Shown here: positions 35,456-53,202 of the stretch, piece by piece
Layout: the number at the start of each line of letters is the position of its first letter
How positions within the stretch are numbered: position 1 is the first letter of the stretch
Origin: Candidatus Chloroploca sp. Khr17
GTDB taxonomy: Bacteria > Chloroflexota > Chloroflexia > Chloroflexales > Chloroflexaceae
Assembly (NCBI RefSeq): GCF_004138165.1
Contig: NZ_RYFF01000020.1
Coordinates: forward strand, 33,982-93,567
Direction of reading: 5' to 3'
Length of the DNA: 59,586 nt
Position numbers and translations under genes: made by a program
Notes under the pieces: generated by a model
Seen by the model: only the letters and a program-made list of their open reading frames with translations
Databases searched by the model: none
Told to the model about the DNA's origin: nothing

Positions 35456-35600
35456 CGGCCCATTGCAACAACAAACTAGAGATAAGCTAACGGTAGCGTA
35501 ATGAGGACGTGTGCGTGTCTTTCACCATTCAGCAATCTCATTCGTGATGATCTTCTGCTTGTGGCGGTGGCCGACAACCAGAATTTTCTCTAGTCTCATG

Positions 35601-36859
35601 CTATCGCCAATCGGCGATCATAATAGCGCTACCTCTGGAAGGAATGCCTCCTCCGCCAGCAACTCTTCGGCCATTGCCGTCGAGAACAGTAATAGTCACT
35701 TCTTGACCTACTTGCAAACCACATAAACGAGCATTCCCACCAGTATCAAAGCGACCACTTAGACCAATTCCATCCACCACGAAGTACCAACCTGCAGGAG
35801 TAATACCATTAATTTTAACCGAGATGCAACGAGGATCGTCATTGTAATTCACTACTCTGAACCGAAGCCTCTTAGCTTCAGGTTGAGGTGCTGGTACGGG
35901 TGTTGGTGGAGGTCTGAGACGATCTAAGGCTGCTTGCGCAACTGATGTATTTGAAATAGGGAGAGCGACAGCTTTGGCATAGATGCGTCGAGCATCACTA
36001 AGATTACCTTGCCGTTCGAGTTGTTCGCCATATGCAATGTATGCATCATAGAGCAGAGCATTGCTATCAAGAAAATTCGCTTGTATTGCAGCTAACTCCT
36101 CGAACTTAATTGCTGCATCACGCCATTGACGCTTCTTGTTCAATGCTACTCCATCAAGGTAGAGTACTAAGATTTGCTGCTGAGCAAGAGCCAACTGATG
36201 TGACGGATCAACGGCAAGCGCTGCATTGAATTTATCAAGTGCATCAACTGGCTGCTCTCCCCTAATGAGTTGAATTCCCCAATTGTAGTAGGTAGAACTC
36301 AACTTTTCGGTTACATCTAGATAGTTTCTGTCACTCTGGTAAATGGACTGAAAAGCATCGGCTGCATCACGCCATCGCTCTTTGGTGTAAGCATCGACTC
36401 CTTTCCTATAGTTTAGTGCGTTTACCGTTCGGGTATCTGGGGTTGGAGATCGTGCCGCGATAGAGGTTCTGGACGGAGAAGTTCTGGGTGTAGCTGAGGG
36501 CCTTTGTTGCTCTGGTCTAGAGGTCGGTTGAGTGCGCACCGGTGTAGCGGTATCAGCGCTGGCTACTACTACAGCAGCTGGCTCACGATTAGGCGACTGG
36601 CTAACCTCGGGAGGAGGTGTGCCATTACGCCCAATGATTACACCAATCAGCACCCCCACAATGAGCAAGACACCAACCCCGATTGCGATCACAATTGGTG
36701 GAAAAGTTCGTTGTGCTATGCCTCGTGTAGGCGGTGTTGACCGTTGAACCTGCTTTTCAGGAACATCAATCGGCCCCACCTCTTTCTGCTGGAGATACTG
36801 TTGATACTCTTCATCATTAGCATCGATCTCACCGTGTTTGTTAAATGTGGGCATAAACA
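35601..36859 (-). CDS. Island operon gene 14: single-pass membrane protein with TPR-like helical repeats and a C-terminal beta-rich domain.
   Basis: Start at ATG 36859/36853 ('MFMPTF'). TM 'FPPIVIAIGVGVLLIVGVLIGVIIG'. Repeats carry a W-x2-A-x3-[FL] signature ('WRDAADAFQSIY', 'WRDAAIKFEELA'). The layout matches the ectodomains of 47366-49150 and 50021-52735. Confidence 0.7.
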
Positions 36860-36931
36860 TCCTCGCCTGGCAAAAACGTGCGGTTAATTCCACCACAACT
36901 GACTACAGATAAGAATACATAAGCGTACAAA

Positions 36932-37735
36932 TCAACGTGTTAAAGCGCGTTGAACCATTGCCGAAGGGCGCAGAGCTTGATCACTCTCGAGAAACGCCCG
37001 CGCCATCCGCATGGGTTGGTAGCGGCGCGAACCTACCACCACGACACTATCCTCAAGCGGATCCGCTAGATCCCAACGCCCCAGTCCATGACGTACCAGT
37101 ACCTCGCCGATGTAAGCACCAAATGTACGTACATTGGCTGTAAGCAGATCTTCATCCCGTAGGAATGTACGATGTTCATTGTCTACATTGAACTCGAAAC
37201 GTTCCAGGCTCTCGACGGAGTAGTCGAGAGCAAGATCTTCATAGAGTGCCGTACGAAAACGTTCAGCTAGGGTAGCCGGTTCGAGCTCTTCCGCATCCGT
37301 GTCTTCATCATACGTATCACCATTGAAGGCACGGTAGATGAGCTCAATGGTAGCTTGGAGGTGCGCTATCGTCTGAGTCACTGTTGCGGCCGTGAACGTT
37401 GGTAGTGGACGATCACAGATCAAGCAGAGGTCACGATCATGATCGAAAGATAGACATGCATCCACTAAGTCATTGTTCATTTGGCTCATTATCAATGCAA
37501 GGGGACTGATATCTTCCCCTTCCTCAGCCGCATACAAGGGCGTTATGCAAAAACGCACATACTCATCGCCAAGTGGCCCTATCTGGGGATATGCCATAAG
37601 ACGGAATGTGCCGCTCGTAGTAGGCCCAATCGGACACTCGATGTCGAAATAGATAATAGGTTGATCGCTATCAGGATCTTCAACGTCGTAGACAAGCCCT
37701 GCTGTGGTGAAAGCAGTCGTAAAAGATATAGACAC
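36932..37735 (-). CDS. Island operon gene 13: strongly acidic cytoplasmic protein, possibly a chaperone/immunity-like partner of the basic proteins.
   Basis: GTG 37735 is preceded by AGGAG ('taggagtaagcctGTG'), immediately after the stop of the upstream gene. Asp/Glu-rich runs include 'DVEDPDSD' and 'YDEDTDAEELEP'. The N-terminal half looks YbjN/chaperone-like by eye only. Confidence 0.65.
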   Translation of the reverse strand: MSISFTTAFTTAGLVYDVEDPDSDQPIIYFDIECPIGPTTSGTFRLMAYPQIGPLGDEYVRFCITPLYAAEEGEDISPLALIMSQMNNDLVDACLSFDHDRDLCLICDRPLPTFTAATVTQTIAHLQATIELIYRAFNGDTYDEDTDAEELEPATLAERFRTALYEDLALDYSVESLERFEFNVDNEHRTFLRDEDLLTANVRTFGAYIGEVLVRHGLGRWDLADPLEDSVVVVGSRRYQPMRMARAFLESDQALRPSAMVQRALTR

Positions 37736-37748
37736 AGGCTTACTCCTA

Positions 37749-38390
37749 TTACGGTATCTGACGAATTTCCACATTTTTACGCTTCGCGGCTGTAATACGC
37801 TGCTTGATTATCGCATTTTGTTCAGGTGTGGTGTTCTTTGGCTTTGGAACCGCGACAACAAGATTGCTATTCTTGCTGGATAAAGCGTTTAATTCGGGAT
37901 TTTTATTTGATTTAAACTTCTTGTCCTTATAAGATTTGACTTGTGATATCTTTCTGTTGAGATTTTTTTGATCAACACCAGCGATACCCTTTACCGGTCG
38001 ATAATTTTCAATCAATTCAAATTTAAATTTTTTCGGATCAGTACTCCGCTTTAGCACCCTAAGTGTGTCAACACGTTTTCTATTCTCAAGTGCTACTTCA
38101 GAGAAAACATCTCCGCGCTTAATTTGCTTATAGTTTGGCGGTGTTTTTCCCTGCAAAGTAGTTGCAGACTTCGGTTTGCGATTGTGTAATTTTGCATGGT
38201 AATTTGTGGAGATTTTGTTGAATTTATGTCCATTAGCTGTATTTCGCCGCAGTTGTGTTCGCTTAAGCTCATTTGACGAAGAGACATTGCGTGCGGCAGC
38301 TTTCATTTTTGTTTTGGAGATCGGAACGGAGATGCTACTTCTATTTACTTTGGGTGTGCCATGCGTAGATTTGCTGCCAACTTTTTTCAT
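37749..38390 (-). CDS. Island operon gene 12: extremely basic Lys/Asn/Arg-rich protein of unknown function. It is the lowest-GC gene in the window.
   Basis: SD 'aggggtg' before ATG 38390. 213 aa dominated by K/N/R/S/T ('KKFKFELIENYRPVKG', 'KSYKDKKFKSNKNPE'). In the 60-nt line starting at 37861 I count 18 G+C. Confidence 0.7.
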   Translation of the reverse strand: MKKVGSKSTHGTPKVNRSSISVPISKTKMKAAARNVSSSNELKRTQLRRNTANGHKFNKISTNYHAKLHNRKPKSATTLQGKTPPNYKQIKRGDVFSEVALENRKRVDTLRVLKRSTDPKKFKFELIENYRPVKGIAGVDQKNLNRKISQVKSYKDKKFKSNKNPELNALSSKNSNLVVAVPKPKNTTPEQNAIIKQRITAAKRKNVEIRQIP

Positions 38391-38410
38391 TTCACACCCC
38401 TATACATTCA

Positions 38411-38977
38411 TTACTTCTTACGCACAATCTTTGGTCTGCCCTGGAAACGTCCGAGCCGCCGCGCCTGTTCGATATGCTGTTCGTTGCGCTCTTGCATCTG
38501 TGCAGCTTCAAAATCGCGCAGGATCTCGTCGGGTTTCTGTAGTGGTTCGGCATGGGGCATAAACATGCTGCTGAGTGCTGCCAACCCCACGAGACCATCA
38601 ACTGTCTTCACCGCAGTGTAGGCTTTGGCCTGATTGAACTTGCCTTTGAACCAATTTAGTTTAGATATTTGATTCGGTGTGGGGGATTTTGGCTGATTCG
38701 AGCCACGAACAGTAGGGTGCTGCAGACCTCCTCGCACGTTGCGTGTTGGCAACGTACTGCTTGGCTTCGCCTTAACTTGTTTTAGTGGTGGCGTCCGAAC
38801 CTTTGATGTTGGGTGCTTCGCCAGTTTGCGTGTCGCTTGCTGCAACTTGACTGGTGTAACCCGCTGCCGGGCGGTTGTTGAAGCAACTGGTTGTAGAGCA
38901 CGTACTGGCGGCGTAGGCTTTGGGGTATTGGGGTTGCTCACACCTGCCCCACTTTTAGTACTCCGATTAACCTTCAT
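38411..38977 (-). CDS. Island operon gene 11: basic Pro/Thr/Lys/Arg-rich protein of unknown function.
   Basis: ATG 38977-38975 overlaps the TGA 38976-38974 of the upstream ATPase gene (ATGA coupling). The N-terminal ~110 aa are low-complexity and basic ('KPTPPVRALQ...KHPTSKVRTPPLKQVKAKP'). The C-terminus is helical ('DEILRDFEAAQMQERNEQHIEQARRLG'). Confidence 0.65.
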   Translation of the reverse strand: MKVNRSTKSGAGVSNPNTPKPTPPVRALQPVASTTARQRVTPVKLQQATRKLAKHPTSKVRTPPLKQVKAKPSSTLPTRNVRGGLQHPTVRGSNQPKSPTPNQISKLNWFKGKFNQAKAYTAVKTVDGLVGLAALSSMFMPHAEPLQKPDEILRDFEAAQMQERNEQHIEQARRLGRFQGRPKIVRKK

Positions 38978-41787
38978 GCGCCTGCTCCAATCAACATTTG
39001 CAGCACCTGGGCATCTACGGGTAAGCCCGAGTTGCGCATCCAATCAGCAGCCAAACGCAGGTAGACCCGTCGCACTTCGGCGTAGCGCGGGTGCGCACCA
39101 AATCGTGCCGTACAGATCTGCTCAATCTGGGTATGGTCCAGGGCACGATCTCCATAGCCCCCCAGAACATCTTCAATCGTTTCAGGCAAGCTATACCCAT
39201 CTTGTGCAAGCACCCACTTAGCTGCGGCATGGGGATCGTCCGGTAGGATGCTAACGGTCTGCACTTGGTTTGGCATCGGTGGCTGCCAGAGCGCCGCTGG
39301 CGGCATCTGCAACGGGCGGCGGGCCATCATCGCCTTCACGGCCTCATCGGAGTCATCAAAGATCGGGCGATCATCGGGCGTCTGAAAACGATCCAGGTAG
39401 TTGCCAACCTGCACGAAGATCGGGCGACTATCGGGGCCTCGTACAATCACTTGGCCCTGCCCGAGTGAGCGTACGTATTCGCGCTGACGCTCATTCAGGT
39501 TCATCACCTCACAGAAGAGCTTAAAGCTCTCCTGATCTTCGAGCCGATGCATGATTTTGAGGTTCGTATTGCCTAGCGCACCATTGACCAGTTGGGTTGG
39601 GATCTGCTCAGCGATCAAGATCCCTTCCCCAAACCCGCGCACCTCAGCCAAAATATTGGCGAAATCCTCTCCACCACGACTCCGTGCGTCAGCAAGATCT
39701 TCGCTACCCTTGTGTCCAGCCGACATAAGCCGATGGGCTTCTTCGATCAGAGTCATGTGCAGTTGTTTGCCGCGTTGTTCGGGTGGGAGGCGTTTGTAGC
39801 GGCTCTGCAATTCTTGGGTCAGTTGTACCAACAAAAAGGCCATAATCAGGGCGCTATCTTCGGGGGAGCCAACCCTTCCTAATTCCATGACGGTTGGCCG
39901 TGAGAGCACTACACTGAGCGGGGCTGGAGCCGTGGTATTGACAATTGTCCCTGCATTGAGCAGAAGATCACGCATGCGAATTTCGGCTGATTGGCGTACC
40001 CGGTCTTTGGCCTCCTCATCAAAGCCCGCCGTCATCAACTCGCTCACCGCAACGAGCGTCGTGTAGAACGCAGCCAAGGTGGGGGTGCCTACCCCCGGAT
40101 CGCCCCCCTTGCCCTGTTCGAGATTCCAACCTGCATCGGTATAGACCTGACGCAGGGCTGCGCGATAAATCGCTGGCAGAGGATCCCACATCGAGAAGGC
40201 GGCCATAAAACAGCGCATCAACAAACTGAGATGGGTCTTAAGCAAGATCCCCTCTGCCACGTAGAAGGGGTTGAAGCGGAAAGGCGTGGTGGTTTCATCA
40301 CCCAGCGTAAAAATTAGCAGATCGTCGGCCATTTGTGGGTCGGCCATGAGTAGCCGATAGTCCGGTTTGTCAATTGGGTACATCACCAGGAATGGTACCT
40401 GGTGGTCGGCCCAAAGTTGGGCCAGCATGTGCAGGCATGTGTTAGTTTTACCGCTTCCCGTAGCCCCTGCGATGAGACCGTGGCGGTTAAGGTCACGGAT
40501 CGGAATTTGCATATACTGGCCAGTACGCGTGCCACGATGGATGATCTCACCGAGGTTCAAACAGGGCACGTTGGTGAGCAGGCGATCGGTTGGCAAAACG
40601 AATGGCTCGTCGCGTACCTCAAGCCCGGGTAGATAACCACTCTCGGGGGGGATCGGCAGACGGAAGGCCCCCGCCGCTTGGTCGGTACTGACGAGATAGC
40701 GCAAGCGTACTGTCGCCTGATCAACGCGTGTTGGCCCCCAGGCTCCGTACTCAAGAAACGCAAAGTTATAACGTGCAATCGCCAGATCTTGATCATCCTT
40801 AGGGCTTTCGCTGGCCCATTGACGTGGCTCCGGCGTATTGTTTTGAATCAACTCGGAACCCAGCGCTTCCATTACATCATTAGGTGCATAATCCGATCCT
40901 ATCACTTGGATTTTTATGCGGAATAAATGATTTCTTTTGTTGATCAGAGGCATAAAGGTACGGGAAATATCATCAAAGCGTTCACGGCGATACAAATCAA
41001 ACCATGATTTGGACTCAACTTCTGCTGTGAGATTGCGATAACGTGAGAGCAGTAAGTTAATCTGGAGTAGCTCTTCGTGGAAGAGCACTGTTGGTCGCAA
41101 GCAGATGCTTGCGACACAGGTTTGCTCTTGTTGCACCAGCGTTTCTAAGAAGCGGCCAAAAGCAGAAGCATCAAAAACTGGACTAAAGGGATGTGGGAAG
41201 TAGCCAATGGCATCAGTACCTGCGTATGGATCAAAATCCTCAAACTTGCGAATCTCGACCAATTGGTTCATGCCTACCTGTTCAATGGGAATAGGTAACA
41301 TTGAACGCATGAAGTCGTCTTCGCCTAACGGCTCTAATGGGTAGTTGAAAGGATCTTCGAGAGGGTAGTGACTACGAAACTTGCACCAGAGCTGCCAGCA
41401 CAGATTTTTGGCGCGATTGCGGTTGGGATGGAAAGCCTTGCCAAGAAAGACAATCTCAATGGTTGGGCGATGTCCTGTCACTTGACTTGGTCGAGCAATA
41501 AACCGCAGATCGAAGGCGGCACTACCCTCGGCAATCATCCGAGCGTTGATCAAATCATTCAGGAAGCGGATTTGACGCAGCGTAATCAACCGAATACGAC
41601 TCAGTTCACCTCCACTGAGCGTACGCGTGAAATCGCTGGTTAAAAAACTAGGAATGAACGGCACCCGTGCTGCAAAGATAGCGTGCGCCCCCTGCTGGCG
41701 AGTGACTTGCACCCCACTACCCCCCCAACTCTCGGCATAGTGGAACTCATCGGGATTGCTGACGTAGATGAACGGCTCTTGCAACAT
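38974..41787 (-). CDS. Island operon gene 10: HerA/FtsK-superfamily (DUF87-like) P-loop ATPase with a ~430-aa N-terminal domain of unknown function.
   Basis: SD 'aggaagg' lies 8 nt before ATG 41787. Walker A 'GLIAGATGSGKTN' at 40444-40467. Walker B/sensor 'LHMTLIEEAHRL'. 'ILIAEQIPTQL...NTNLKIMHRL' is typical of HerA-like NTPases. Confidence 0.75.
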   Translation of the reverse strand: MLQEPFIYVSNPDEFHYAESWGGSGVQVTRQQGAHAIFAARVPFIPSFLTSDFTRTLSGGELSRIRLITLRQIRFLNDLINARMIAEGSAAFDLRFIARPSQVTGHRPTIEIVFLGKAFHPNRNRAKNLCWQLWCKFRSHYPLEDPFNYPLEPLGEDDFMRSMLPIPIEQVGMNQLVEIRKFEDFDPYAGTDAIGYFPHPFSPVFDASAFGRFLETLVQQEQTCVASICLRPTVLFHEELLQINLLLSRYRNLTAEVESKSWFDLYRRERFDDISRTFMPLINKRNHLFRIKIQVIGSDYAPNDVMEALGSELIQNNTPEPRQWASESPKDDQDLAIARYNFAFLEYGAWGPTRVDQATVRLRYLVSTDQAAGAFRLPIPPESGYLPGLEVRDEPFVLPTDRLLTNVPCLNLGEIIHRGTRTGQYMQIPIRDLNRHGLIAGATGSGKTNTCLHMLAQLWADHQVPFLVMYPIDKPDYRLLMADPQMADDLLIFTLGDETTTPFRFNPFYVAEGILLKTHLSLLMRCFMAAFSMWDPLPAIYRAALRQVYTDAGWNLEQGKGGDPGVGTPTLAAFYTTLVAVSELMTAGFDEEAKDRVRQSAEIRMRDLLLNAGTIVNTTAPAPLSVVLSRPTVMELGRVGSPEDSALIMAFLLVQLTQELQSRYKRLPPEQRGKQLHMTLIEEAHRLMSAGHKGSEDLADARSRGGEDFANILAEVRGFGEGILIAEQIPTQLVNGALGNTNLKIMHRLEDQESFKLFCEVMNLNERQREYVRSLGQGQVIVRGPDSRPIFVQVGNYLDRFQTPDDRPIFDDSDEAVKAMMARRPLQMPPAALWQPPMPNQVQTVSILPDDPHAAAKWVLAQDGYSLPETIEDVLGGYGDRALDHTQIEQICTARFGAHPRYAEVRRVYLRLAADWMRNSGLPVDAQVLQMLIGAGA

Positions 41788-41806
41788 ACGGGTGCCTTCC
41801 TGATCA

Positions 41807-43195
41807 CTAAGCGTAAGCGGTCATAACGGCTTCGACCAGCACAAGTAGATCGCACTGGGGCGTCCAGTTAGCGAGCGGTTCAGGCATGAAGCGCTGCTCT
41901 TGTCCATCGAACTCTACAAACATAGTTGGAGCCTCTTGGGGATACCGAGCCGTACAACTAAAATAGATGCCGAGGGTGTGCCCAAGCTGATCACGCAGGC
42001 TGACACTGACCAGGAAGACGTTCGCATCTTCGTGTAGGGCGGCGTTTAGTCCCTGTGCTAGCATTGCGCCTATCTCGTTGCGCAGGCGTTCGCCAGCACC
42101 TGCGCCGCTGAAGCGTGCGACGGGTGACGGTAAAGCGGGAACAGTCACACCATACATCCCTCCGAGAGTAGCTGTAGGTGGGGCTACGGCCTGTCCGGTG
42201 AGCGCCCCAAGCAACACCTGTTGAAGGTCATTGCTACCTGCCGCCGATGTCCCCATCGGCAGCATCCCCGCCTTCGCCATCTCGGTCAGGGCCAGTAAGC
42301 GTTGTCCATCTGTTTGCGCTTTATCACCAAAGACACGCGTGTACATGTCTGGATTGGTCAGCAAGAGATATTGCGGTGTCAATTCAATCATGCGCGAGAT
42401 ATTCATCTGTGTGAGCGCCTGTGCCATCGCAATCTCGGCCTGCGAGTTCGCCTGGATCTTCGCGACCTCGGCATCAGTTTGCGCCTCGCGGGTACGCATA
42501 TAAACGTCACGTAATTTCTTGTCCAGTTCTTCAGCACCCGCAATACGCGTGATCTGGACGTTCGAGACTCGTATTCCCAAGTTGTCTTCAATGCCGCGTT
42601 GCTGCAATTGCTGTGCAACCATGTAACCTGCATGACCGCCCGCCTGGAAATCCTGGTATTTAGCAATTGATGCAGTGATCGAACGAATTGATTCCATCAC
42701 CGTATCATAGAGCCTCGTGAGCGGCTGTTCGACGACAAGCGCAACGTGTTCAGGATGAATTATCTGATAACTGACTGCAACATCGAGATCAACTGGCAAT
42801 GCAATCTTCTCACCCTGGGGCGGCTGATAGAAAATCGTAAACTCCTTCGTCGTTGTTATATCCAGCGTGCGCTCACGCGTATTGACCACGTAGAGATCAA
42901 TGCGATTCATCACGGGAAACGAGAGCGCGTGATAACTCCCTTCTTGCAGCACTTCGAGCACTCTGCCATCCCCGGTCACAACGACGGTAGTGCCAGCCAT
43001 AACCCGAAAGATACGAAAGATACTGGTGAAGACATTGTTATGAACACGTACTGGACCAAAGACAAGGGGTGAATTACTTAGATCAGCAAACGGTTCACGC
43101 AGGAAGTCATCAAGCGAGCCCTGTCTGCTCGCTGCTTCCTTATCGTTAACGTGACGACGGTTTAGGGGCATGGTCTGGTCACGGTTAGTTCCCAT
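41807..43195 (-). CDS. Island operon gene 9: SPFH/Band-7 (flotillin/prohibitin-like) domain fused to a C-terminal UEV/RWD-like (non-catalytic E2-fold) domain.
   Basis: ATG 43195 follows 'ggaaggag'. The SPFH-like core runs from 'VVVTGDGRVLEVLQEGSYHA...' through 'VDLDVAVSYQIIHPEHVALVV' and 'GIRVSNVQITRI' to a coiled-coil 'AQTDAEVAKIQANSQAEIAMAQA'. C-terminus 'LGIYFSCTARYPQEAPTMFVEF...NWTPQCDLLVLVEAV'. Confidence 0.7.
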   Translation of the reverse strand: MGTNRDQTMPLNRRHVNDKEAASRQGSLDDFLREPFADLSNSPLVFGPVRVHNNVFTSIFRIFRVMAGTTVVVTGDGRVLEVLQEGSYHALSFPVMNRIDLYVVNTRERTLDITTTKEFTIFYQPPQGEKIALPVDLDVAVSYQIIHPEHVALVVEQPLTRLYDTVMESIRSITASIAKYQDFQAGGHAGYMVAQQLQQRGIEDNLGIRVSNVQITRIAGAEELDKKLRDVYMRTREAQTDAEVAKIQANSQAEIAMAQALTQMNISRMIELTPQYLLLTNPDMYTRVFGDKAQTDGQRLLALTEMAKAGMLPMGTSAAGSNDLQQVLLGALTGQAVAPPTATLGGMYGVTVPALPSPVARFSGAGAGERLRNEIGAMLAQGLNAALHEDANVFLVSVSLRDQLGHTLGIYFSCTARYPQEAPTMFVEFDGQEQRFMPEPLANWTPQCDLLVLVEAVMTAYA

Positions 43196-43229
43196 ACGAG
43201 CCAACTCCTTCCTGAGGCGCACAAGGTTG

Positions 43230-44453
43230 TTAGGTTTGATTGGGTAATATGCTAAGCTGAATGACCGGAAGATCAGCCAAGATGTCCGAAGCTTCGGCGG
43301 CTGCTTCTTGTTCACTCATCTTGAGGCTTTCGGCTACGAAAGCTGAATAGTTGCACACCGGACATTGAGCATTCTTCGGCACATCAATGAAGAGGCTCTC
43401 TAACGGCTGTTGAAAGATCCACTCCGCACGATTACCGAAGAGGAGCCAGTTCGTCGGCAGATCCGGTAGCGTGTTCTGCTTATCGCGCAGAAGCGTTAGT
43501 AACGCCATACGCGCCATTAACAGCGCAATCATACCCACATCAACCCCTAGACCTGGCTGAGCCAGTAATTCTTCCATACGTGCGGGATCTTCGTAACCCA
43601 GCGAGAAATCCTGTGTAGCGGCAGGGGGAGGGCCAAAAAAATCGGCAATGACGGTCTGAAAACAGGCGTAGCAAGCACCCTCGGAGGGAATTGCACGGAA
43701 GATATCACCCCCAAAGGCGCGATTGTAGGCTGCGGCATAGATAGCCGGGATCCCTCTTGGCCAGCACACGGTATTGACCGCCAACTTTGAGTCTTCATGA
43801 TCAGTAGCGACCACAACCAGATCACACCCGGTAACAATGGTAGCTAGTTGATCCTCATGGCCTAACACGTTCAACTCGTAGGTCTCGACGGTAATTGCGG
43901 GCGAGATGTCGTAGAGCAGATCGCGCAGGGCACGGGTCTTATAGCGCCCGATATCGTGGAGGCCACACGCATGACGTGCAATATTGTGAACTTTGAGCCG
44001 ATCAAAATCCACCAACCGCATCTGCCCTACTCCGCAACGAGCAAGCTGGCTCGCCACCACTGAACCACCTGAGCCGAGGCCAATCACGGCAATGCACGTA
44101 TTGGCGAGGCTGCTCACTTCAAAGATGCCGTGCATACGTGAGGCATAGTCAGTATGCAAACGGATGACGTTGCAGGAAATCGTTTCCCATCCAGTAGCCT
44201 TGCTTTGCCAACCAGCAACCTGATCTGGCAACTCATCGTCAATGTTGAGGACTATTTCTTCCGGGGCCAGTTCTGTTGTTGGCGGTACAGGGCTGCGATA
44301 CCAGCGACCTAGGTACGCACCGGACGCCTCAAGGATTCCCCTGATTTGCACGACATCGCCATCGTCATAACGGTAGCCGTAGAGCTTGCCCTCTGTCTGT
44401 GCAGCAGTACCAAGCAACTGGTTAATCAAGCTATCAGGAACGGTAAGAAACAT
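43230..44453 (-). CDS. Island operon gene 8: ThiF/MoeB/E1-like adenylyltransferase with an N-terminal degenerate JAB-like segment.
   Basis: SD 'ggag' lies between the upstream TAG and ATG 44453. Rossmann motif 'IAVIGLGSGGS' at 44061-44081. 'RLVDFDRLKVHNIARH' is the E1 Arg-finger/Asp region. 'GACYACF'. The N-terminal 115 aa align by eye to the two JAB proteins, but with HKH replaced by YRS. Confidence 0.8.
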   Translation of the reverse strand: MFLTVPDSLINQLLGTAAQTEGKLYGYRYDDGDVVQIRGILEASGAYLGRWYRSPVPPTTELAPEEIVLNIDDELPDQVAGWQSKATGWETISCNVIRLHTDYASRMHGIFEVSSLANTCIAVIGLGSGGSVVASQLARCGVGQMRLVDFDRLKVHNIARHACGLHDIGRYKTRALRDLLYDISPAITVETYELNVLGHEDQLATIVTGCDLVVVATDHEDSKLAVNTVCWPRGIPAIYAAAYNRAFGGDIFRAIPSEGACYACFQTVIADFFGPPPAATQDFSLGYEDPARMEELLAQPGLGVDVGMIALLMARMALLTLLRDKQNTLPDLPTNWLLFGNRAEWIFQQPLESLFIDVPKNAQCPVCNYSAFVAESLKMSEQEAAAEASDILADLPVIQLSILPNQT

Positions 44454-44464
44454 CGGCAGACTCC

Positions 44465-45865
44465 CTATTGCAGTGGCTTCCCTTGATCTGGTTGAACCGA
44501 TGTTGGAAATACATAGCTGCGGTTGAACTCAGCGCAGAGGTCAGCCGCACTACGACAGGCCAGTTCAACTTGACGTACGATCAGACGACCTTGAAATTCG
44601 AGCAACTCACCAATGCGCTGGGATGGACGTGGTTGGGTCAAGGTTTCAAGCACATTGCGCACTACATCACGTAGGCGTATATGGGTACGCCAACCACCAG
44701 GAAAGAGTTGTTCAGTCACAATACGTACTACGTTATCATCACTCAACACGACTTGGACTTCAGGCGCTTGCTGCGGAAACTGTGAACCAGGATCAAGCTT
44801 AATAGCTTTGATCTGTAGCGGCTCTGTTTGCGCAACTGGCGCGACATTTACCATCCCCTCCGGCGTTTGCTGGGGTGCTGGGATTATCTCAGGGATATTC
44901 AGGGTCATTAGGGGCGGATGCGTAAAGGTAATCGTATACCAAACTCCGTTATCATCGCGCGTATGTACCTCCAGATGCGCCCCAGATCGCAAGGTCTGGC
45001 AGTACTGTTCCAGATCCTGTTGTTCGCGTGCAAAGCGGCCAGGAAGGGGAGGGATTGGCGGAATGCTTGCATCAGGTGGTGAACCTGAGAAAGGTGGTAT
45101 TTCAGGCGGCACGAAATCAGTCGCTGAACGACGAGTGTAAGAGGAACTTTCTAGATCGATGACCTCCAGGGTATCAGGAGGTTCCACATCTAGTGTGTAA
45201 GGTGAGGTATGTGGCTGCACCGGAGGATGGGAATGCAGATTGGCCCGGGCAGCACGGAGATCGGCCGGGTTGACTCCCCAGCGATCAGCAGTTCCTGATG
45301 TTGCGTGAGGAGGTTTTGGCGCAACTGTCTGTTGTTCTAGCGCAACCAGACCATCCAACAAGACGCGAAGGTCGCCTTCGACAAGCTCACATGGCACAGG
45401 CGTCGCACTCATCGTCTCACGGGGATAGTAGTGCCCATGGAGCAGAAATGTACCATCTTCAATGGTTACAAGTGGGGTGAAGATACCGTGGGGCAAATGA
45501 TAGGACTCATCGCTCAAGATATCGACCACCTGAAGCGTATCACCCGAACTTGGCCGATGCAAACCTGGCGGATGCTTATGCCACTCACCAACATAATCAA
45601 CGTGGTAGGTGGCGTAGTGCTGACGCCACGTTTCCAGGTCGCGTTGGCGAGCAAGTGCATCTGGAGCATAGGTATGCGCCCGTCGGTCGGCATTGCTACC
45701 AGGACCAGAGGCTGCCACAACGACGAGGTGGAGTCCATCGGGGAGTTGGAACATACGTCCAACCAGGATGCCGCCGGTCTCACGTCCAGGGCTCGTACAT
45801 GCCTCGTCGTACATCCGCTGATAGACATCTTGTTGGGCCAGATAGACGGTATTTGGTACTGGCAT
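44465..45865 (-). CDS. Island operon gene 7: JAB/MPN+ (JAMM) metallopeptidase fused to a C-terminal UEV/RWD-like domain.
   Basis: ATG 45865 lies one nt after the E2 stop codon (TAA 45869-45867). 'ETGGILVG'. An intact JAMM motif 'HKHPPGLHRPSSGD' (H-x-H-x7-S-x2-D) at 45539-45580. C-terminus 'IKAIKLDPGSQFPQQAPEVQVVL...GGWRTHIRLRDVVRNVL'. Confidence 0.85.
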   Translation of the reverse strand: MPVPNTVYLAQQDVYQRMYDEACTSPGRETGGILVGRMFQLPDGLHLVVVAASGPGSNADRRAHTYAPDALARQRDLETWRQHYATYHVDYVGEWHKHPPGLHRPSSGDTLQVVDILSDESYHLPHGIFTPLVTIEDGTFLLHGHYYPRETMSATPVPCELVEGDLRVLLDGLVALEQQTVAPKPPHATSGTADRWGVNPADLRAARANLHSHPPVQPHTSPYTLDVEPPDTLEVIDLESSSYTRRSATDFVPPEIPPFSGSPPDASIPPIPPLPGRFAREQQDLEQYCQTLRSGAHLEVHTRDDNGVWYTITFTHPPLMTLNIPEIIPAPQQTPEGMVNVAPVAQTEPLQIKAIKLDPGSQFPQQAPEVQVVLSDDNVVRIVTEQLFPGGWRTHIRLRDVVRNVLETLTQPRPSQRIGELLEFQGRLIVRQVELACRSAADLCAEFNRSYVFPTSVQPDQGKPLQ

Positions 45866-45866
45866 G

Positions 45867-46322
45867 TTAGTCTGCCTCAATTCCAGGCCAATAGGTTTTC
45901 CCTGACTCAAGCCAGGTTTCGTAGGCAAAGAACCAAGCGGCGGCTACCGCGATCACGGTTGCTGCCGTGGTTTGCTGGGCAAACGAACGATCACCAGGGT
46001 AGTAGAGGCATAGGTGTCCATCGTTATACTGGTGCTTGAGGCGGCCTGCTTGCTCGTCCTTCCAGACGGTAATCGCTGGGTTAATGGGATAAACTTTAGG
46101 CGGATCATCGGGAAAGTTGTCAGGATAGTAGAGTGCAATCTCATAGCGCCTTTCGCGATTACTCTCTAAGGTGCCGATCCAGACCAACTGGTTACTATCA
46201 CGCACGAGCTGAAACTGGGGAAAGCGCGTTTCCATAGCTCTCTTTTCCAGTACGAGTCGTGCGGGATTAAGGTCATACCACGCTGCATACCAGCGCATCG
46301 GACGGAGAATAGTTTGGCCCAT
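45867..46322 (-). CDS. Island operon gene 6: E2/UBC-like ubiquitin-conjugating-type enzyme with a candidate catalytic Cys.
   Basis: 'YEIALYYPDNFPDDPPKVYPINP' is the E2 flap motif (46098-46115). 'KHQYNDGHLCLYYPG' has the Cys codon at 46008-46010 (H..N..G.lC, as in E2 HPN...C). A C-terminal helix 'TVIAVAAAWFFAY' follows. Confidence 0.8.
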   Translation of the reverse strand: MGQTILRPMRWYAAWYDLNPARLVLEKRAMETRFPQFQLVRDSNQLVWIGTLESNRERRYEIALYYPDNFPDDPPKVYPINPAITVWKDEQAGRLKHQYNDGHLCLYYPGDRSFAQQTTAATVIAVAAAWFFAYETWLESGKTYWPGIEAD

Positions 46323-46387
46323 CGTAACTACCCTTATTCGTTGCTGCTTAACAGTGCTTTAGATGTCTATGTCCACAAGTGGATCGT

Positions 46388-46588
46388 TTATGCTCGTGTA
46401 AATAGGGCAAACCAGCGCTGCGGTTTAAGCACTGTCTTGCTCTGTGGATCGGTCTGCGCGACCTTGGGATCTTCTGGGACGTGCATCTTGCCATCCGGAC
46501 TGACGACAACTTCCTGTGCGGTGGCAAGACGCTTCTTAAGTTCTTCCAGGCTGGATTGTGGGCTACGAGGGGGTTGTGGCGTGCTCAT
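46388..46588 (-). CDS. Island operon gene 5: 66-aa hypothetical protein, probably disordered, occupying the position where a Ubl gene would be expected.
   Basis: ATG 46588 is preceded by a strong SD ('caggaggtacaccaccATG'). Sequence: MSTPQPPRSPQSSLEELKKRLATAQEVVVSPDGKMHVPEDPKVAQTDPQSKTVLKPQRWFALFTRA. There is no C-terminal Gly and no obvious beta-grasp pattern. Confidence 0.55.
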   Translation of the reverse strand: MSTPQPPRSPQSSLEELKKRLATAQEVVVSPDGKMHVPEDPKVAQTDPQSKTVLKPQRWFALFTRA

Positions 46589-46640
46589 GGTGGTGTACCT
46601 CCTGGGATTTGCTGACACGACTGGTATACGTACAAGGGAA

Positions 46641-47357
46641 TTAGATAATACGTTCGGTATATTGTGCCCAAACCGACTGTTGCGTCGGTGGCTGGTTCGT
46701 GACTTGAGCATAAGAAATGAGGCCCAAAAGGTTGTTGACCACTGCCAGCAGTGAACTATTGCCATTCCAACTGCGCAGAACAGACGAATCAAGTGCGAGG
46801 TGATGTTCGGCTAGTTCACCACAGGCATCAAACCCGAGCATGGTGGCAATGAGCTGCGGTGCGATAATTGGATAGTCATCCGTACAAATGAGATGGATCG
46901 AGACATTCTCCCCATCACTCCGTGCCACCCGGATCTGAACACAGTACTCTTCGACATCCGGGCGCCCGGCGAGGCTCACCGCCTCGTAACCATTACTGCG
47001 TAACTTCGCTACTTCTTGCGTCAAACGTTGCACCACATTTATTGGGGTAACATCAATCACTTGGCGACTTGCAACTGGGGTTCCGGCTGGTGTAAAACCA
47101 CCCGCGCCGGAACTCCAGGTTGGTACCTGCGATGAAAGCGTCGAAGTGTCTTCATGGATTGGCATTGGAGGCGGGCGCATGGTGGGACTAGCCGGTGGGA
47201 GAATGAACGCTTTACCCTGTTTTGATGTTACTTCTGATTGGCTCGTTGTGGCGCGTCGCCCACTCCCGCCTCGTTGGAGTACGAAGACAACGAGGATCAG
47301 GACGACGAGAACGAGGACGCCCCCACCAGCAATGATCAGCAGAATTGATGTATCCAA
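46641..47357 (-). CDS. Island operon gene 4: N-terminal TM anchor, Pro-rich linker and UEV/RWD-like domain.
   Basis: TTG start at 47357 follows GGAGG, which overlaps the upstream TAG ('TAGGAGGcgtcTTG'). TM 'ILLIIAGGGVLVLVVLILVVFVL'. 'VSIHLICTDDYPIIAPQLIATM...SWNGNSSLLAVVNNLL'. Confidence 0.7.
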   Translation of the reverse strand: MDTSILLIIAGGGVLVLVVLILVVFVLQRGGSGRRATTSQSEVTSKQGKAFILPPASPTMRPPPMPIHEDTSTLSSQVPTWSSGAGGFTPAGTPVASRQVIDVTPINVVQRLTQEVAKLRSNGYEAVSLAGRPDVEEYCVQIRVARSDGENVSIHLICTDDYPIIAPQLIATMLGFDACGELAEHHLALDSSVLRSWNGNSSLLAVVNNLLGLISYAQVTNQPPTQQSVWAQYTERII

Positions 47358-47365
47358 GACGCCTC

Positions 47366-49150
47366 CTAGCGGGGTATGATGCGTACCAGATAAGTCGCAC
47401 TGGTACTCAGATCCAGGTTCGCTTCGCCTACCATCGGCAATTCCGCCAGGCTCAGCAAGTAACGTCCACTGGGTAGGGCCGCACTCGCGACACCTGTCTG
47501 ATCAGTCACGATCTGGCGATTGCCGCTCGATCCCACAAGGTTGAGTACCAGATTAGAGGTAGGTGCAATAATCAGCAGATTGACCGGATCGCCATTGATC
47601 TGCGTTGCGAGACGACGATCCGTAAGCAAACGCGTCCATTCAGATGCATCGAGTCGGGTTGTAATGATTTGATAGGCACTCGTGCTTGCAAGCAAAGCTT
47701 CGGCTTCGCGCTTGAGTTGGCGCGCACTTTCCCCACGATCCTCTGCAACCTGAGCAAGGCTAAGTGCGGCGTTGGCCTGAGCGAGCGCGTCGGTGCCAAC
47801 TGTCCCGCCGCGTTCGAGCAAGGCTAGACCGTAACCGACATAAGAATCGTAGAGCCACTGCTCGACGGTGCGTACCGCAGGGTCGCTTGTGTTAGGCCTT
47901 AATTGCACGGCCTGTTCAAGTTCGCTGATCAGGGCGGGCCATGTAGCGACACTTGCATCGCGGAATTGTGTCGCCCGTGCAATCCACTTCAAACGATCAG
48001 CTAGTCCTTCAAGATCTTGCTCCAGAGTTGCAGCAAGTACATAATGCTCGTGAGACTCAATGACATCCGTGGCAAAGAGGAGGTCACCCCATGCCAGCTG
48101 GGCTTGTGCCAAGCGGGTCTTGACGCCTATCGCTGCTTCAGGACTCTGCGCTTCAGGGTGGAGAACATGGATCTGTTCAAGCAGGGCTACTACTTGTGCC
48201 CAACTTGCCGTGGTATTCACTGCCCATAGTTGCTCGGCCTCAGTCCAGAGCGTCTTCGTCCGGGCTTCGATAACAGCAACTAGTCCAGCCTGAGCATCAG
48301 AGGAGGCTGGATCAAGCGCGAGAGCCTGGCGAAACATGGCTTCCGCCTGATCAAGTTGGTTCGCTTCGAGGAGTGCGGACGCATAACGCTCATAGGCGGT
48401 GATGAGCGGGATTGGATTGGCAACCAGGCTACCGCAACTACCACCCACCCCGCTCTGACCACGGTTGTGCATTGCTTCGAGGGTATGGGTTACTTGCGCG
48501 AGGGATTCGCGATCACCGACTGCATAGGCTTGAGCCACGAACTGCTGCTCGGAAGCGCACGGATCGTAGAGCAAGGTATAGTAGAGTAGCAACCCCCCGG
48601 CAATGAGCAGGGTGACACCTCCACCTACCACGGCTAAGATCTTCCCTGTGGCGGAACGACGCGTTGGGGTAGGAAGGGGACGTTCTTCACGAGGTGGCAA
48701 CTCCTTAGGGAATGGCACATCAAGTGGTGGCATGGGGGCCACCGGTTCAGCAATGCGTGCAAGCCGTAGATTGGAACTCTGTACGCTGTCCTGGACTTCC
48801 AGAACGATTTCGTAGAGCATCTGGCGACTCGACCAACTGAGACGGGTTTTTGACTCGACATCAATCGGGAGTTCTTGTAACTCGCCGTAGCTTGTTGTGC
48901 CGGGTGTGGTCACGGTGACCACAAGATTGGGCGCCGTAGCTGGAAAATTTGCATCAAGCTGGAAGTAGAGATGCACCGGCTGTGGCCCTTCGTGCGTGTC
49001 ACGAACCAACTCTACTGTTAAGTAGTAGCGCTGAGCACTCGCGTCCTGCTGGAGGTCGCAAGCATAGCCCATATCACGGATGGCCTTGACCTCTTGACCA
49101 ATGCGCTCAGCGTGACTTTGGTCAGCGGCCATGGGGGGGAGGGATGACAT
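47366..49150 (-). CDS. Island operon gene 3: UEV/RWD-like domain, TM, helical (TPR-like) repeats and a C-terminal CarboxypepD_reg-like beta-sandwich.
   Basis: 'PVHLYFQLDANFPATAPNLVVTV...SWSSRQMLYEIVLEV'. TM 'ILAVVGGGVTLLIAGGLLLYYTLLY'. Repeats 'SWAQVVALLEQIHVLHP' and 'TWPALISELEQAVQLRP'. C-terminus 'DQTGVASAALPSGRYLLSL'. Confidence 0.75.
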   Translation of the reverse strand: MSSLPPMAADQSHAERIGQEVKAIRDMGYACDLQQDASAQRYYLTVELVRDTHEGPQPVHLYFQLDANFPATAPNLVVTVTTPGTTSYGELQELPIDVESKTRLSWSSRQMLYEIVLEVQDSVQSSNLRLARIAEPVAPMPPLDVPFPKELPPREERPLPTPTRRSATGKILAVVGGGVTLLIAGGLLLYYTLLYDPCASEQQFVAQAYAVGDRESLAQVTHTLEAMHNRGQSGVGGSCGSLVANPIPLITAYERYASALLEANQLDQAEAMFRQALALDPASSDAQAGLVAVIEARTKTLWTEAEQLWAVNTTASWAQVVALLEQIHVLHPEAQSPEAAIGVKTRLAQAQLAWGDLLFATDVIESHEHYVLAATLEQDLEGLADRLKWIARATQFRDASVATWPALISELEQAVQLRPNTSDPAVRTVEQWLYDSYVGYGLALLERGGTVGTDALAQANAALSLAQVAEDRGESARQLKREAEALLASTSAYQIITTRLDASEWTRLLTDRRLATQINGDPVNLLIIAPTSNLVLNLVGSSGNRQIVTDQTGVASAALPSGRYLLSLAELPMVGEANLDLSTSATYLVRIIPR

Positions 49151-49207
49151 AGCAACTACTCTCTTGTAAGCGACGCGAATGCCCAGCGTTGACGAGCCTT
49201 ACGAAAC

Positions 49208-50017
49208 TCAGATCCGGCCATAGAGATCAGTAACAATCGTTGCCAGACGACACGAACCGTCCCAGGGGAAGAAGATTCCGGAACCAATATTGAGCGAGGT
49301 GCCATGGCGCTCGACAACCACGGAAGGTGGTTGCTGAGGGTAAGTTGGCTCACACACCATATAGATCGTCGTCCCATCCTGTGGTCGGGTAACGGTTACG
49401 CAGCACGTGCCGTCTTGGAGGGTATTGATCTGGACGGTGCCAAATTGGGCCAGTGCTATGCGCTCACCAGCGATACGCTCGGCGAGATCCAAACTAGGAC
49501 GAGGTGTGGCTCCCCCTACCGTCTGGTGCGGGCTAGGTGGTGGATCAGGTGGTAGTAATGGCCCCGAACTACGTAGCCCAGCAGTAGGGGAGGCGTTCGT
49601 TCTAGCTATGAGTCCGCTCGTCCGGAGATTGCCGTCCGACCTAGAGGCTATAGTAGGCCCGCGGCCCATTGAACTGCCAAGCACGAGGCCAAGCAGTAGG
49701 CCGGGAGCTGTCCCAAGCAGCATTGCCACACTGTACATACGCAAACTCCCAAGGGCTAGTCCTAGATTATCGCTCAGCAGCATATTTAGGACACCACAAA
49801 GCAGCACAAAGACGAGCGCACTAGCTGCGGGGCCAACGAAGATCGCCCAGTGGTAACCTTGTGCGACACGCCCGCGTAAGAGTAGACCTCCACCCAGGCC
49901 CCCGATGATCAGCCCGATCATTGCCAGAGCTAGAACCACCAGCGGGTTCGTGCTGATCAATAGGCCCATGCCCAGGAAGAAGAGACAACTGACGATGATA
50001 ACCATTGCTGCAAGCAT
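49208..50017 (-). CDS. Island operon gene 2: 4-TM Gly-zipper membrane domain, Pro-rich linker and UEV/RWD-like domain.
   Basis: ATG 50017 lies 3 nt after the upstream TAA, with GGAGGA inside the last codons of the upstream gene. TM segments include 'GLIIGGLGGGLLL'. 'TTIYMVCEPTYPQQPPSVVVER...PWDGSCRLATIVTDLY'. Confidence 0.75.
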   Translation of the reverse strand: MLAAMVIIVSCLFFLGMGLLISTNPLVVLALAMIGLIIGGLGGGLLLRGRVAQGYHWAIFVGPAASALVFVLLCGVLNMLLSDNLGLALGSLRMYSVAMLLGTAPGLLLGLVLGSSMGRGPTIASRSDGNLRTSGLIARTNASPTAGLRSSGPLLPPDPPPSPHQTVGGATPRPSLDLAERIAGERIALAQFGTVQINTLQDGTCCVTVTRPQDGTTIYMVCEPTYPQQPPSVVVERHGTSLNIGSGIFFPWDGSCRLATIVTDLYGRI

Positions 50018-50020
50018 GGG

Positions 50021-52735: not shown

Positions 52736-52900
52736 GCATCCTCCGAGACGACATGGGGTGCGAACGTTAGGACATCACTTTCTGATGAACATAATCTTGA
52801 TTCTTGAATAAGGTTCAGCGTCTTAATCTTGGTGAGCGATCTCTCTCTATAATCTTAGTAACAATCTTTGGAGGTTTGCGCTTGTGTTTTTTGCTCTGGT
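52736..52900 (-). promoter_or_regulatory. AT-rich leader/promoter zone of the island operon (exact elements not resolved).
   Basis: It lies immediately upstream of the first gene and is noticeably AT-rich ('cataatcttgattcttgaataagg', 'tctctctataatcttagtaacaatc'). No convincing -35/-10 pair at canonical spacing was found. Confidence 0.25.
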
Positions 52901-53189
52901 TGATCAAGGTGGTCAGGCTTGAACGCAGGGAAGCAGCGCACGCGGGCATGGTGACCGTGGTCGCTCGGTGAACGAACGAGATTCTTCAGTTCTTGGTTCG
53001 CATATGTACCGCAATTGCAGCTTCGGGCCGTGAACCGCGCGGCTTGTGGGCAGCGAAGGCTACCTGCGTGGCCTGATCCAGCCGACGAAGGTCGGCTTTG
53101 CCATGCGTCGCCGCCGCGTTGACGCCGACGGTCTGGGCGGATGGGTGCGTTCTGCCGGTTGGGGAATTTGCGCGCCTGGCTTTAGTGTC

Positions 53190-53201
53190 GTATCATGATA
53201 C
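53190..53201 (+). promoter_or_regulatory. 12-bp perfect palindrome abutting the hicA start codon (candidate HicB operator).
   Basis: 'gtatcatgatac' at 53190-53201, with the ATG at 53203. Confidence 0.3.
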
Positions 53202-53202
53202 T

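Follow-up and report, generated by a model that had tools for sequence, protein, structure and literature searches.

A 59,586-nt stretch of the genome of Candidatus Chloroploca sp. Khr17 (Chloroflexota; contig NZ_RYFF01000020.1, positions 33,982 to 93,567), hereafter the window, contains three adjoining genes whose products are of extreme and opposite charge. Two of them, here called basic1 and basic2, encode ultra-basic proteins with isoelectric points (pI) of 11.71 and 11.02, and the third encodes a strongly acidic protein (pI 4.25) from a GTG start behind AGGAG (Table 1). Among the 35 non-overlapping open reading frames (ORFs) of at least 120 aa in the window, basic1 and basic2 have the two highest charge densities and the acidic protein the lowest. 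The charge pattern and the acidic gene described by a first-pass annotation, made from the DNA letters, are thus borne out, and so is its statement that basic2 is the most AT-rich gene: basic2 has a GC content of 0.391 (window mean, 0.572), every one of the lowest-GC 640-nt segments of the entire sequence lies on it, and the 60-nt line starting at 37861 holds exactly the 18 G+C that had been counted, which ties for the lowest line of the window. At third codon positions (GC3), basic2 reaches ~0.37 and the adjoining ATPase gene 0.575. The description of both basic proteins as low-complexity applies to the N-terminal ~85-110 residues of each, whereas the C-terminal parts are conserved and of ordinary composition.

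The three genes belong to an operon with the order E2-like, Prok-JAB, ThiF-type E1, SPFH/Band 7, HerA/FtsK-superfamily ATPase, basic1, basic2, acidic gene and TPR membrane protein. Intergenic distances are -4 nt between the ATPase gene and basic1, 20 nt between basic1 and basic2 and 13 nt between basic2 and the acidic gene, and a search for promoter-like sites inside this run found none. The same operon order occurs in Oscillochloris trichoides DG-6 (locus L001), in the metagenomic contigs L002, L046, L047 and L053 and in a P0013 contig. Presence, order and tight spacing of basic1, basic2 and the acidic gene are kept in loci with ATPases that share 61-78% identity with the window ATPase. Because genes, order and spacing are conserved among related loci, the three ORFs are, by this comparative measure, real genes.

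Table 1. Genes and domains of the operon and of adjoining parts of the window. D+E, Asp plus Glu; K+R, Lys plus Arg.
Feature	Position	Strand	Properties
basic1	38977..38411	minus	188 aa; net charge +27; 36 K+R, 9 D+E
basic2	38390..37749	minus	213 aa; net charge +39; K 17%, N 10%; 52 K+R
basic2 leader, residues 1-84	38139..38390	minus	20 K+R, 1 D+E; predicted disordered; same kind as basic1 leader
basic2 C-terminal domain, residues 85-213 + stop	37749..38138	minus	GC 0.377, GC3 0.357; GC minimum of the window
Acidic gene	37735..36932	minus	267 aa; net charge -27
Acidic N-domain, residues 1-137	37325..37735	minus	net charge -15 (5 K+R, 20 D+E); toxin-specific half
Acidic linker, residues 138-169	37229..37324	minus	disordered; net charge -9 (2 K+R, 11 D+E)
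Acidic C-domain, residues 170-267 + stop	36932..37228	minus	helical; GAYIGEV...RYQPMRMARAFLESDQALRPS; distantly DUF6278-like; system-specific half
HerA/FtsK-superfamily P-loop ATPase	38974..41787	minus	937 aa; Walker A GATGSGKT, Walker B TLIEEAH
SPFH/Band 7 protein	41807..43195	minus	Pfam Band_7 2.5e-8; C-terminal RWD/UEV-like 'YPQEAP' region
ThiF-type E1	43230..44453	minus	PADLOC E1-E2 5.7e-41; Pfam ThiF 5.3e-35
Prok-JAB	44465..45928	minus	PADLOC JAB 2.3e-15; Pfam Prok-JAB 2.5e-8; C-terminal RWD/UEV-like motif region
E2-like	45867..46322	minus	PADLOC E2 1.9e-24
62-66 aa ORF	46388..46582	minus	also L002 570..758, L046 5296..5484, L047 4995..5195
TPR membrane protein	35601..36854	minus	Pfam TPR_2 4.2e-7; last gene of the conserved block
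Upstream membrane protein	46641..47357		RWD/UEV-like motif in cytoplasmic part
Upstream membrane protein	47366..49150		RWD/UEV-like motif in cytoplasmic part
Upstream membrane protein	49208..50017		RWD/UEV-like motif in cytoplasmic part
Upstream membrane protein	50021..52735		RWD/UEV-like motif in cytoplasmic part

The basic2 protein consists of a leader and a C-terminal domain. Calculated pI and predicted disorder, both singled out early as properties to check, agree with the picture of a highly charged, flexible leader, which lies on the disordered side of the charge-hydropathy relation and has a predicted local distance difference test score (pLDDT) below 40 in AlphaFold2 (AF2). The first 80 residues of all 14 leaders, from basic1 and toxin proteins of eight loci, are rich in S/T/P and contain 15-27 K+R against 0-8 D+E, independent of the toxin domain behind them; in L047 the leaders of two adjoining genes are visibly alike. 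The leaders match no domain in Pfam, NCBIfam or PADLOC and contain no known trafficking domain, no Sec/Tat signal and no hydrophobic signal, and the maximum hydropathy of basic2 is 0.05. Residues ~51-68 of the basic2 leader (TANGHKFNKISTNYHAKL, window 38190..38240) weakly match chloroplast 30S ribosomal protein S31 (bTHX-like; motif KTAKGKRFN; E 0.064), a match that is probably compositional and hints at RNA binding.

Behind the leader lies a domain that differs between loci. In eight loci, the slot between ATPase/basic1 and the acidic gene is occupied by three nuclease-type domain types: an EC869/NERD-like type in the window, L002, L047 and Chloroflexus aggregans (L048); a UPF0102/YraN-type PD-(D/E)xK domain with the motif HGIDIIAF...VFTEVKGAR in L001 (3e-5, above the gathering score), L046 and L053; and a Tox-GHH type (HNH nuclease toxin) in L003 (4.6e-20). 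No homology between the EC869-like and UPF0102-type domains is detectable by hhalign. The case for a nuclease effector is strong at the GHH and UPF0102 loci. In the window, basic2 matches the Pfam family PF21111 (CDI_toxin_EC869_like) with an E-value of 0.0015 (19.2 bits); its L002 orthologue does so with 0.07 (13.8 bits), the L047 homologue has no match, and the homologue in C. aggregans matches NERD (E 0.065). Asp D108 is invariant in the alignment of this four-member family, as are N129, R131 and K134. The C-terminal domain of basic2 is thus probably a nuclease of the restriction-endonuclease fold and the CdiA-CT EC869/NERD type, and for the window copy in particular we put a nuclease effector slightly ahead of the opposite.

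An exhaustive phmmer search of 1.84 billion representatives with this domain returned the query, its orthologue in L002 and a single repeat protein as a spurious match, and a word-indexed search returned the domain itself alone; in terms of these databases it is an orphan domain of two clusters. In five of the six loci compared, the GC3 of the toxin gene is below that of the neighboring ATPase gene. Hence, the compositional anomaly of the window is explained by an exchangeable cassette: judged from its base composition, basic2 is foreign, and its AT-richness is more than a by-product of Lys and Asn codons.

The acidic protein is divided into an N-domain, a linker and a C-domain, with nearly all negative charge in the first two. 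In an AF2 model computed from the five members of the family (pLDDT 75), an α-β3-α-β2-α N-domain is followed by a disordered linker (residues 141-169, pLDDT <50) and a helical C-domain. The N-domain has the fold of class I chaperones of type III secretion systems (T3SS) and of YbjN proteins (α-β-β-β-α-β-β-α, ~130 residues), a superfamily of peptide-binding chaperones that has been named 'TY-chaperones' (PMC9503650). The acidic pI and the adjoining client gene, with basic2 13 nt upstream, are also as in the TY-chaperone arrangement. The window protein itself has no Pfam match, and in its orthologues the test against YbjN (PF10722), CesT and TY-Chap1 stays below threshold (0.0034 in L001, 0.0051 in L047). 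The 136-aa positional orthologue from C. aggregans passes the Pfam gathering score for YbjN (27.4 > 22) and touches TY-Chap1 and CesT, and the window family aligns to this protein in hhalign (97.3% probability, E 1.8e-11). The acidic protein of the window is 100% identical to a hypothetical protein of Candidatus Chloroploca sp. Khr17. With five clusters among 5.8 billion, the acidic family is found inside this operon only, and neither orphan toxin/immunity cassettes nor stand-alone acidic homologues were found in other genomes.

The C-domain is 45-71% identical across all loci irrespective of toxin type and is absent from C. aggregans; its presumed docking partner is a constant component restricted to the larger systems. 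Among distant relatives from soil metagenomes, one matches DUF6278 with 1.9e-5 (24.7 bits, sub-threshold) and another with 1.7e-6 (28.1 bits, above the gathering score of 26.4 bits). We considered the C-domain as an immunity domain of wider toxin systems and rejected this, as the DUF6278-like soil relatives have no conserved toxin neighbors; these relatives therefore give no functional lead.

Sequence identity within the acidic protein follows the type of the toxin. Between loci with the same toxin type (window and L002; L001, L046 and L053), the N-domains are 51-60% identical, the C-domains 58-68% and the ATPases 66-78%. For all other pairs, which include the window and L002 compared with the divergent EC869-like L047, identity of the N-domains is 16-28%, while that of the C-domains is 45-71% and that of the ATPases 61-75%, the last range leaving out the L003 pairs (48-73%), where the ATPase is a C-terminal fragment of ~215 residues. 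The change from toxin-dependent to uniform identity takes place across the acidic linker. Since the N-domain tracks the toxin while ATPase and C-domain are uniform, toxin and N-domain have been exchanged together, and the linker is the probable recombination boundary of the cassette. Such co-variation would be expected of a cognate neutralizer, either immunity protein or antitoxin/chaperone, and argues against a generic stress protein. We thus consider it likely that the acidic N-domain binds the toxin and keeps it inactive, which is what would define the cassette.

These data also bear on another explanation, in which the basic proteins are non-toxic histone-like or ribosomal-protein-like binders, the acidic protein is a general stress protein of the YbjN type and their adjacency has no meaning in terms of toxins. 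Their composition does resemble that of nucleoid and ribosomal proteins, the S31/bTHX match of the basic2 leader fits, and most members of the YbjN family have no known toxin partner (PMC5398634). However, bona fide toxin domains (Tox-GHH, UPF0102) occupy the same slot in sister loci, and a housekeeping role leaves the co-variation of N-domain and toxin unexplained. The extreme rarity of both families, with two clusters for the basic2 C-domain and five for the acidic protein, and the foreign composition of the toxin gene speak against it as well, and we regard this explanation as very improbable.

In contrast to basic2, basic1 is constant. Its residues 1-112 form a disordered, basic, S/T/P-rich leader (22 K+R, 0 D+E), and residues 113-188 a conserved module in which a hydrophobic segment (AKAYTAVKTVDGLVGLAALSSMFMP) is followed by a helix (DEILRDFEAAQMQERNEQHIEQARRLG) and by the basic tail PKIVRKK. 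Orthologues are present in L001 (an uncalled ORF at 8800..9303), L002, L046 and L053. The number of nonsynonymous substitutions per site (dN) is 0.25 in the C-terminal module and 0.73 in the leader, and only these dN ranks are informative because synonymous sites are saturated; the module is thus conserved and the leader poorly so. The ATG of basic1 overlaps the stop codon of the ATPase gene (ATGA), also in L001 and L003, suggesting stoichiometric co-production of basic1 with the ATPase motor. No family in Pfam, NCBIfam, PADLOC or PHROGs matches basic1. Three candidate assignments were dropped: a transmembrane (TM) helix in the hydrophobic segment (maximum 19-residue hydropathy 1.34, below the usual threshold of 1.6), a fusion of the L003 GHH toxin with the basic1 C-module (hhalign gives a weak match to the leader alone, 31 residues at 36% probability), and a 208-aa protein of L047 as basic1, which is equivalent by position only. 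On the strength of this conservation, basic1 is an accessory or adaptor of the ATPase and not a variable effector.

The first-pass annotation had proposed a basic effector and an acidic neutralizer as a possible output module of the operon. The pairing as such is well supported by the chaperone/YbjN fold, the co-variation of the N-domain and the nuclease toxin domains in the slot of sister loci. It has to be narrowed to basic2 as the variable effector, since basic1 is a conserved accessory, translationally coupled to the ATPase, and no effector.

The ATPase is the conserved anchor of the system, with homologues in at least 268 clusters, mostly from Chloroflexota. It matches HerA_C (4.1e-8), FtsK_SpoIIIE and DUF87 in Pfam, together with partial matches of TraG and TrwB type. 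The best PADLOC model is mad8 (1.1e-18); HerA models match partially, over ~120 C-terminal residues (E 4.6e-10), and relatives in the PDB score just 0.002-0.005. Orthologues of the SPFH protein (454-472 aa) adjoin the ATPase in every case. The listed ORF start of the SPFH gene (43315) is probably too far upstream, and the orthologues point to an internal ATG at 43195 (MGTNRDQ, 462 aa) as the likely true start. In the TPR membrane protein, the N-terminus is cytoplasmic and a single TM segment is followed by a linker rich in P/T, by TPR repeats and by a β-rich domain at the C-terminus; its orthologues come after the acidic gene in L001, L002, L003, L046 and L053. Its listed start (36896) is probably too far upstream as well, the conserved start being at 36854 (MPTFNKHGEI).

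A minimal form of the system is found in C. aggregans, where genes for an SPFH protein, a polytopic membrane protein, the ATPase, a basic protein (195 aa, pI 11.4) and the acidic YbjN protein (pI 4.06) follow each other and no E1, E2 or JAB gene is present in the locus. Hence, the basic/acidic pair belongs to the SPFH/ATPase core, and the conjugation module is, from this distribution, an accessory layer on that core. A further correction to the first-pass annotation is that the pair goes with the SPFH/HerA-like ATPase core and not with E1/E2/JAB. The polytopic membrane protein of C. aggregans (CP001337, 1336598-1359390; gene 9448..9987, 179 aa) lies between the SPFH and ATPase genes and weakly matches Colicin_V (CvpA; E 0.0017); a similar membrane protein occurs in L050. 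GC content of the five-gene block is ~0.37-0.42 compared to 0.51 for the locus.

The minimal form also bears on a second alternative, raised by the first-pass annotation, according to which the Lys-rich basic proteins are mainly substrates of E2/E1/JAB conjugation, with tagging of their lysines instead of release from the acidic partner as the means of regulation and the acidic protein just shielding lysines or solubilizing the basic chains. The 36 and 52 K+R of basic1 and basic2, in proteins with leaders essentially free of acidic residues, and the operon that both genes have in common with E2, E1 and JAB would agree with this. A tag might be provided by a conserved ORF of 62-66 aa directly upstream of E2 (MSTPQPPRSPQSSLEELKKRLATAQEVVV...KTVLKPQRWFA; no Pfam match), whose conserved KPQRWF[A/S] end is extended by a tail that varies in length (none, F, R, LFTRA). 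A precursor that the JAB peptidase trims would be expected to look like this, and the protein is therefore a candidate that could serve as a non-ubiquitin tag for the E1/E2 pair. However, the basic toxin and the YbjN partner persist in C. aggregans, which lacks E1/E2/JAB, so that tagging cannot be the core function; several leaders (e.g., in C. aggregans and L053) are Arg/Ser-rich instead of Lys-rich, and no ubiquitin-like β-grasp gene was identified. Tagging of the basic proteins is thus an improbable explanation of the cassette.

Our preferred, though tentative, interpretation is that the three genes form the output cassette, a swappable toxin with its cognate chaperone/immunity protein, of a membrane-associated conflict system based on an SPFH protein and a HerA/FtsK-type ATPase, with the toxin acting inside the producer. 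The effector would be basic2, in which the ~85-residue basic disordered leader carries a swappable toxin domain. The acidic N-domain would bind and neutralize its specific toxin, and the C-domain would anchor the complex of toxin and keeper to the constant part of the machine, to which basic1 would belong as constant accessory or adaptor of the motor. Upon a trigger, the ATPase would separate toxin from keeper, and the freed toxin would attack nucleic acid inside the producing cell, resulting in an abortive, immune-type output. In the version of the Oscillochloridaceae, the trigger would presumably be passed on by E2/E1/JAB and by the membrane proteins with RWD domains. We lean slightly toward such an intracellular abortive output over export because of the CBASS-type E2, E1 and JAB proteins, the defense pairs of HerA and effector, the lack of orphan immunity genes and an ATPase homologue located beside BREX genes (L051, described below). 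HerA-plus-effector pairs are documented defenses. Intracellular immune systems have been predicted to include TY-chaperones (PMC9503650).

Several observations weigh against this interpretation. The PF21111 match of basic2 misses the gathering score of 27, and at the (D/E)xK position the window and L002 read L-I-E-N (E-Y-K-N in L047, S-T-K-N in C. aggregans), so that the window copy could be catalytically altered. The two-sequence AF2 model of basic2 is unusable (pLDDT 43), and its order of three strands, helix, strand, helix and strand is at most compatible with an α-β-β-β-α-β core; searches of the PDB with the sequence and with two- and four-sequence profiles gave no meaningful relatives. 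Among the operon proteins, PADLOC recognizes no known defense system beyond E1/E2/JAB and the partial HerA matches. The roles of YbjN-family proteins are diverse and poorly understood, and the modeled fold alone would not prove neutralization. Lastly, Tox-GHH and EC869 domains were defined in secreted toxins, and a T3SS-type chaperone, an FtsK-family ATPase and a CvpA-like membrane protein would fit export equally well.

In the case of export, the same cassette of toxin and chaperone/immunity protein would leave the cell via the FtsK/HerA-type ATPase and kill competitors, using a hitherto unrecognized route in Chloroflexota that resembles type VII secretion systems (T7SS) or T3SS. The acidic chaperone would keep basic1 and basic2 secretion-competent and would be the immunity protein of the producer, and the SPFH and TM/TPR proteins would scaffold a membrane complex. 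The order of toxin then immunity gene with co-variation of the two is a hallmark of polymorphic toxins (PMC3482391), and the Tox-GHH and CDI EC869-like families come from secreted examples. Moreover, the partner has a T3SS-chaperone fold, and two different proteins have the same kind of N-terminal leader, as secretion substrates do. The FtsK_SpoIIIE, TraG and TrwB-type partial matches of the ATPase, the weak Colicin_V match in C. aggregans and membrane proteins with large extracytoplasmic parts encoded in the same block can be added. On the other hand, the ATPase has no TM segment, there is no obvious channel-forming protein, and the leader has neither a Sec/Tat signal nor a known trafficking domain; hydrophilic and strongly basic, it points to nucleic-acid binding more than to export. 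Orphan toxin/immunity cassettes and stand-alone immunity homologues are missing elsewhere, and E1/E2/JAB modules of this type are known so far from intracellular anti-phage immunity alone. Export is, in our view, a serious rival, somewhat less probable than intracellular action. A further-reaching variant, which we hold to be doubtful, would see the SPFH protein, the HerA/FtsK ATPase, the TY-chaperone-like protein and the leader-bearing basic proteins as a new protein-delivery machine of filamentous Chloroflexota. The basic leader would then be a new secretion or translocation signal common to a structural basic1 and the swappable basic2 toxins, the chaperone would double as immunity protein, and E2/E1/JAB, possibly with the 62-aa KPQRWF[A/S] tag, would gate firing.

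Whichever direction the toxin takes, the cassette appears to have the logic of polymorphic toxin/immunity pairs and also that of T3SS effectors with their chaperones, yet departs from both families in their defining features. T3SS class I chaperone-effector pairs (SycE/YopE, SicP/SptP, CesT/Tir, Spa15) operate with an F1/InvC-type ATPase, whereas the ATPase in the window belongs to the HerA/FtsK superfamily and the host to the Chloroflexota. The chaperone domain is fused via an acidic linker to a DUF6278-like domain, and its client is a nuclease-type toxin with an extremely basic leader. No T3SS component is among the Pfam, NCBIfam and PADLOC matches for the nine operon proteins, four upstream proteins and related loci. 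Polymorphic toxin-immunity systems (CdiA-CT/CdiI of contact-dependent inhibition (CDI), Rhs, LXG/T7SS; PMC3482391) resemble the cassette in the variable C-terminal nuclease domains behind a constant N-terminal part, in the downstream cognate protein that changes with the toxin and in the foreign composition of the cassette. Unlike in those systems, the proteins are short (~200-300 aa), a basic leader stands in place of RHS, filamentous hemagglutinin, LXG or PAAR regions, no known secretion system and no orphan cassettes are found, and the immunity-like protein is a chimera of a variable chaperone-fold half and a constant half.

The pairs of HerA and effector (HerA-NurA, HerA-DUF4297/Cap4-like nuclease, Sir2-HerA) are comparable in that a gene for a HerA-superfamily ATPase adjoins that of a nuclease-type effector and in that a distant homologue is located near BREX genes. 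However, the ATPase of the window is 937 aa long with partial HerA matches and an N-terminal region of ~400 residues of no recognized type, and the system has an SPFH protein in every case, a chaperone-like neutralizer and a second basic accessory. With type II cyclic-oligonucleotide-based anti-phage signaling systems (CBASS; Cap2 E1-E2, Cap3 JAB), the system has in common that E2, E1 and JAB score strongly on CBASS models; Pfam E2-CBASS is matched by orthologues. The differences are that E2 and E1 are separate genes and that the module is dispensable for the core of toxin and chaperone. Among the nine operon proteins (35601-46322), no CD-NTase and no cyclic-nucleotide-sensing effector was recognized, and the single 'Cyclase' model match falls on the E2-like region of a fusion model, not on a CD-NTase. 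In toxin-antitoxin-chaperone (TAC) systems and AvrRxo1/Arc1, a chaperone-type protein likewise is or assists the neutralizer of an adjoining toxin. TAC systems have SecB-like chaperones and a separate antitoxin, whereas one two-domain protein is proposed for both tasks in our case, and the pair is embedded in a membrane-associated system of nine or more genes. A literature search for this gene combination found no description, and a module of toxin and keeper coupled to a HerA-like ATPase seems to be undescribed.

Beyond these genes, an RWD/UEV-like region with a 'YP/FPxxxPP' motif recurs in six window proteins. The JAB and SPFH proteins have it C-terminally, and four membrane proteins encoded upstream (Table 1), one of which bears a second Prok-JAB domain, have it in their cytoplasmic parts. 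Pfam RWD matches this region in the 594-aa protein alone and weakly (E 0.0031). The motif is also seen in L049 and L050, which have distant ATPases, and the region may be a shared adaptor domain. The L051 segment 8001..18525 has the context of a defense island: behind the gene of a distant homologue of the ATPase (45% identity) lies one for a 453-aa protein whose N-terminus is acidic and which contains the PD-(D/E)xK-like motif PD...ELVDAK, and then come the bacteriophage exclusion (BREX) genes PglZ, a PDDEXK_4 protein and BrxL. The gene behind the ATPase of L052 encodes an acidic repeat protein of 368 aa (pI 4.05). An ATPase-pattern scan of the genome collection returned only O. trichoides, the chosen patterns being too specific.

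GC content is 0.42-0.59 per 500 nt in the block bounded by the TPR gene and the second JAB gene (~35500..52800), compared to mostly 0.58-0.64 in the flanks, which suggests an island. The window contains no tRNA gene, and for a prophage or viral origin we found no relatives on viral contigs and no informative PHROG matches. In the gap that separates the acidic from the TPR gene, a weak terminator-like hairpin followed by a T-run is located at 36879..36897 (minus strand); such sites are not enriched in the region (5 found, 3.9 expected from shuffled sequence). Beyond the island, two small adjoining ORFs of 123 and 106 aa (53098..53793, plus strand) look, by eye, like a HicA/HicB-type toxin-antitoxin pair.

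If our interpretation is correct, the cassette would represent a new architecture of conflict systems, in which a keeper of T3SS-chaperone fold with a constant docking domain guards swappable nuclease toxins. These toxins, with their ultra-basic disordered leader, would be connected with a HerA-like motor and an SPFH scaffold, to which some lineages add a ubiquitin-like conjugation module without CD-NTase. The large and poorly understood YbjN family would gain a client-binding role outside type III secretion, and the five-gene operon of C. aggregans would be a tractable case for the question of what E1/E2/JAB modules regulate in systems without CD-NTase. An export outcome would be more novel than an intracellular one. 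In either case, the finding would bear on whether Chloroflexota possess an unrecognized route of toxin delivery or abortive infection.

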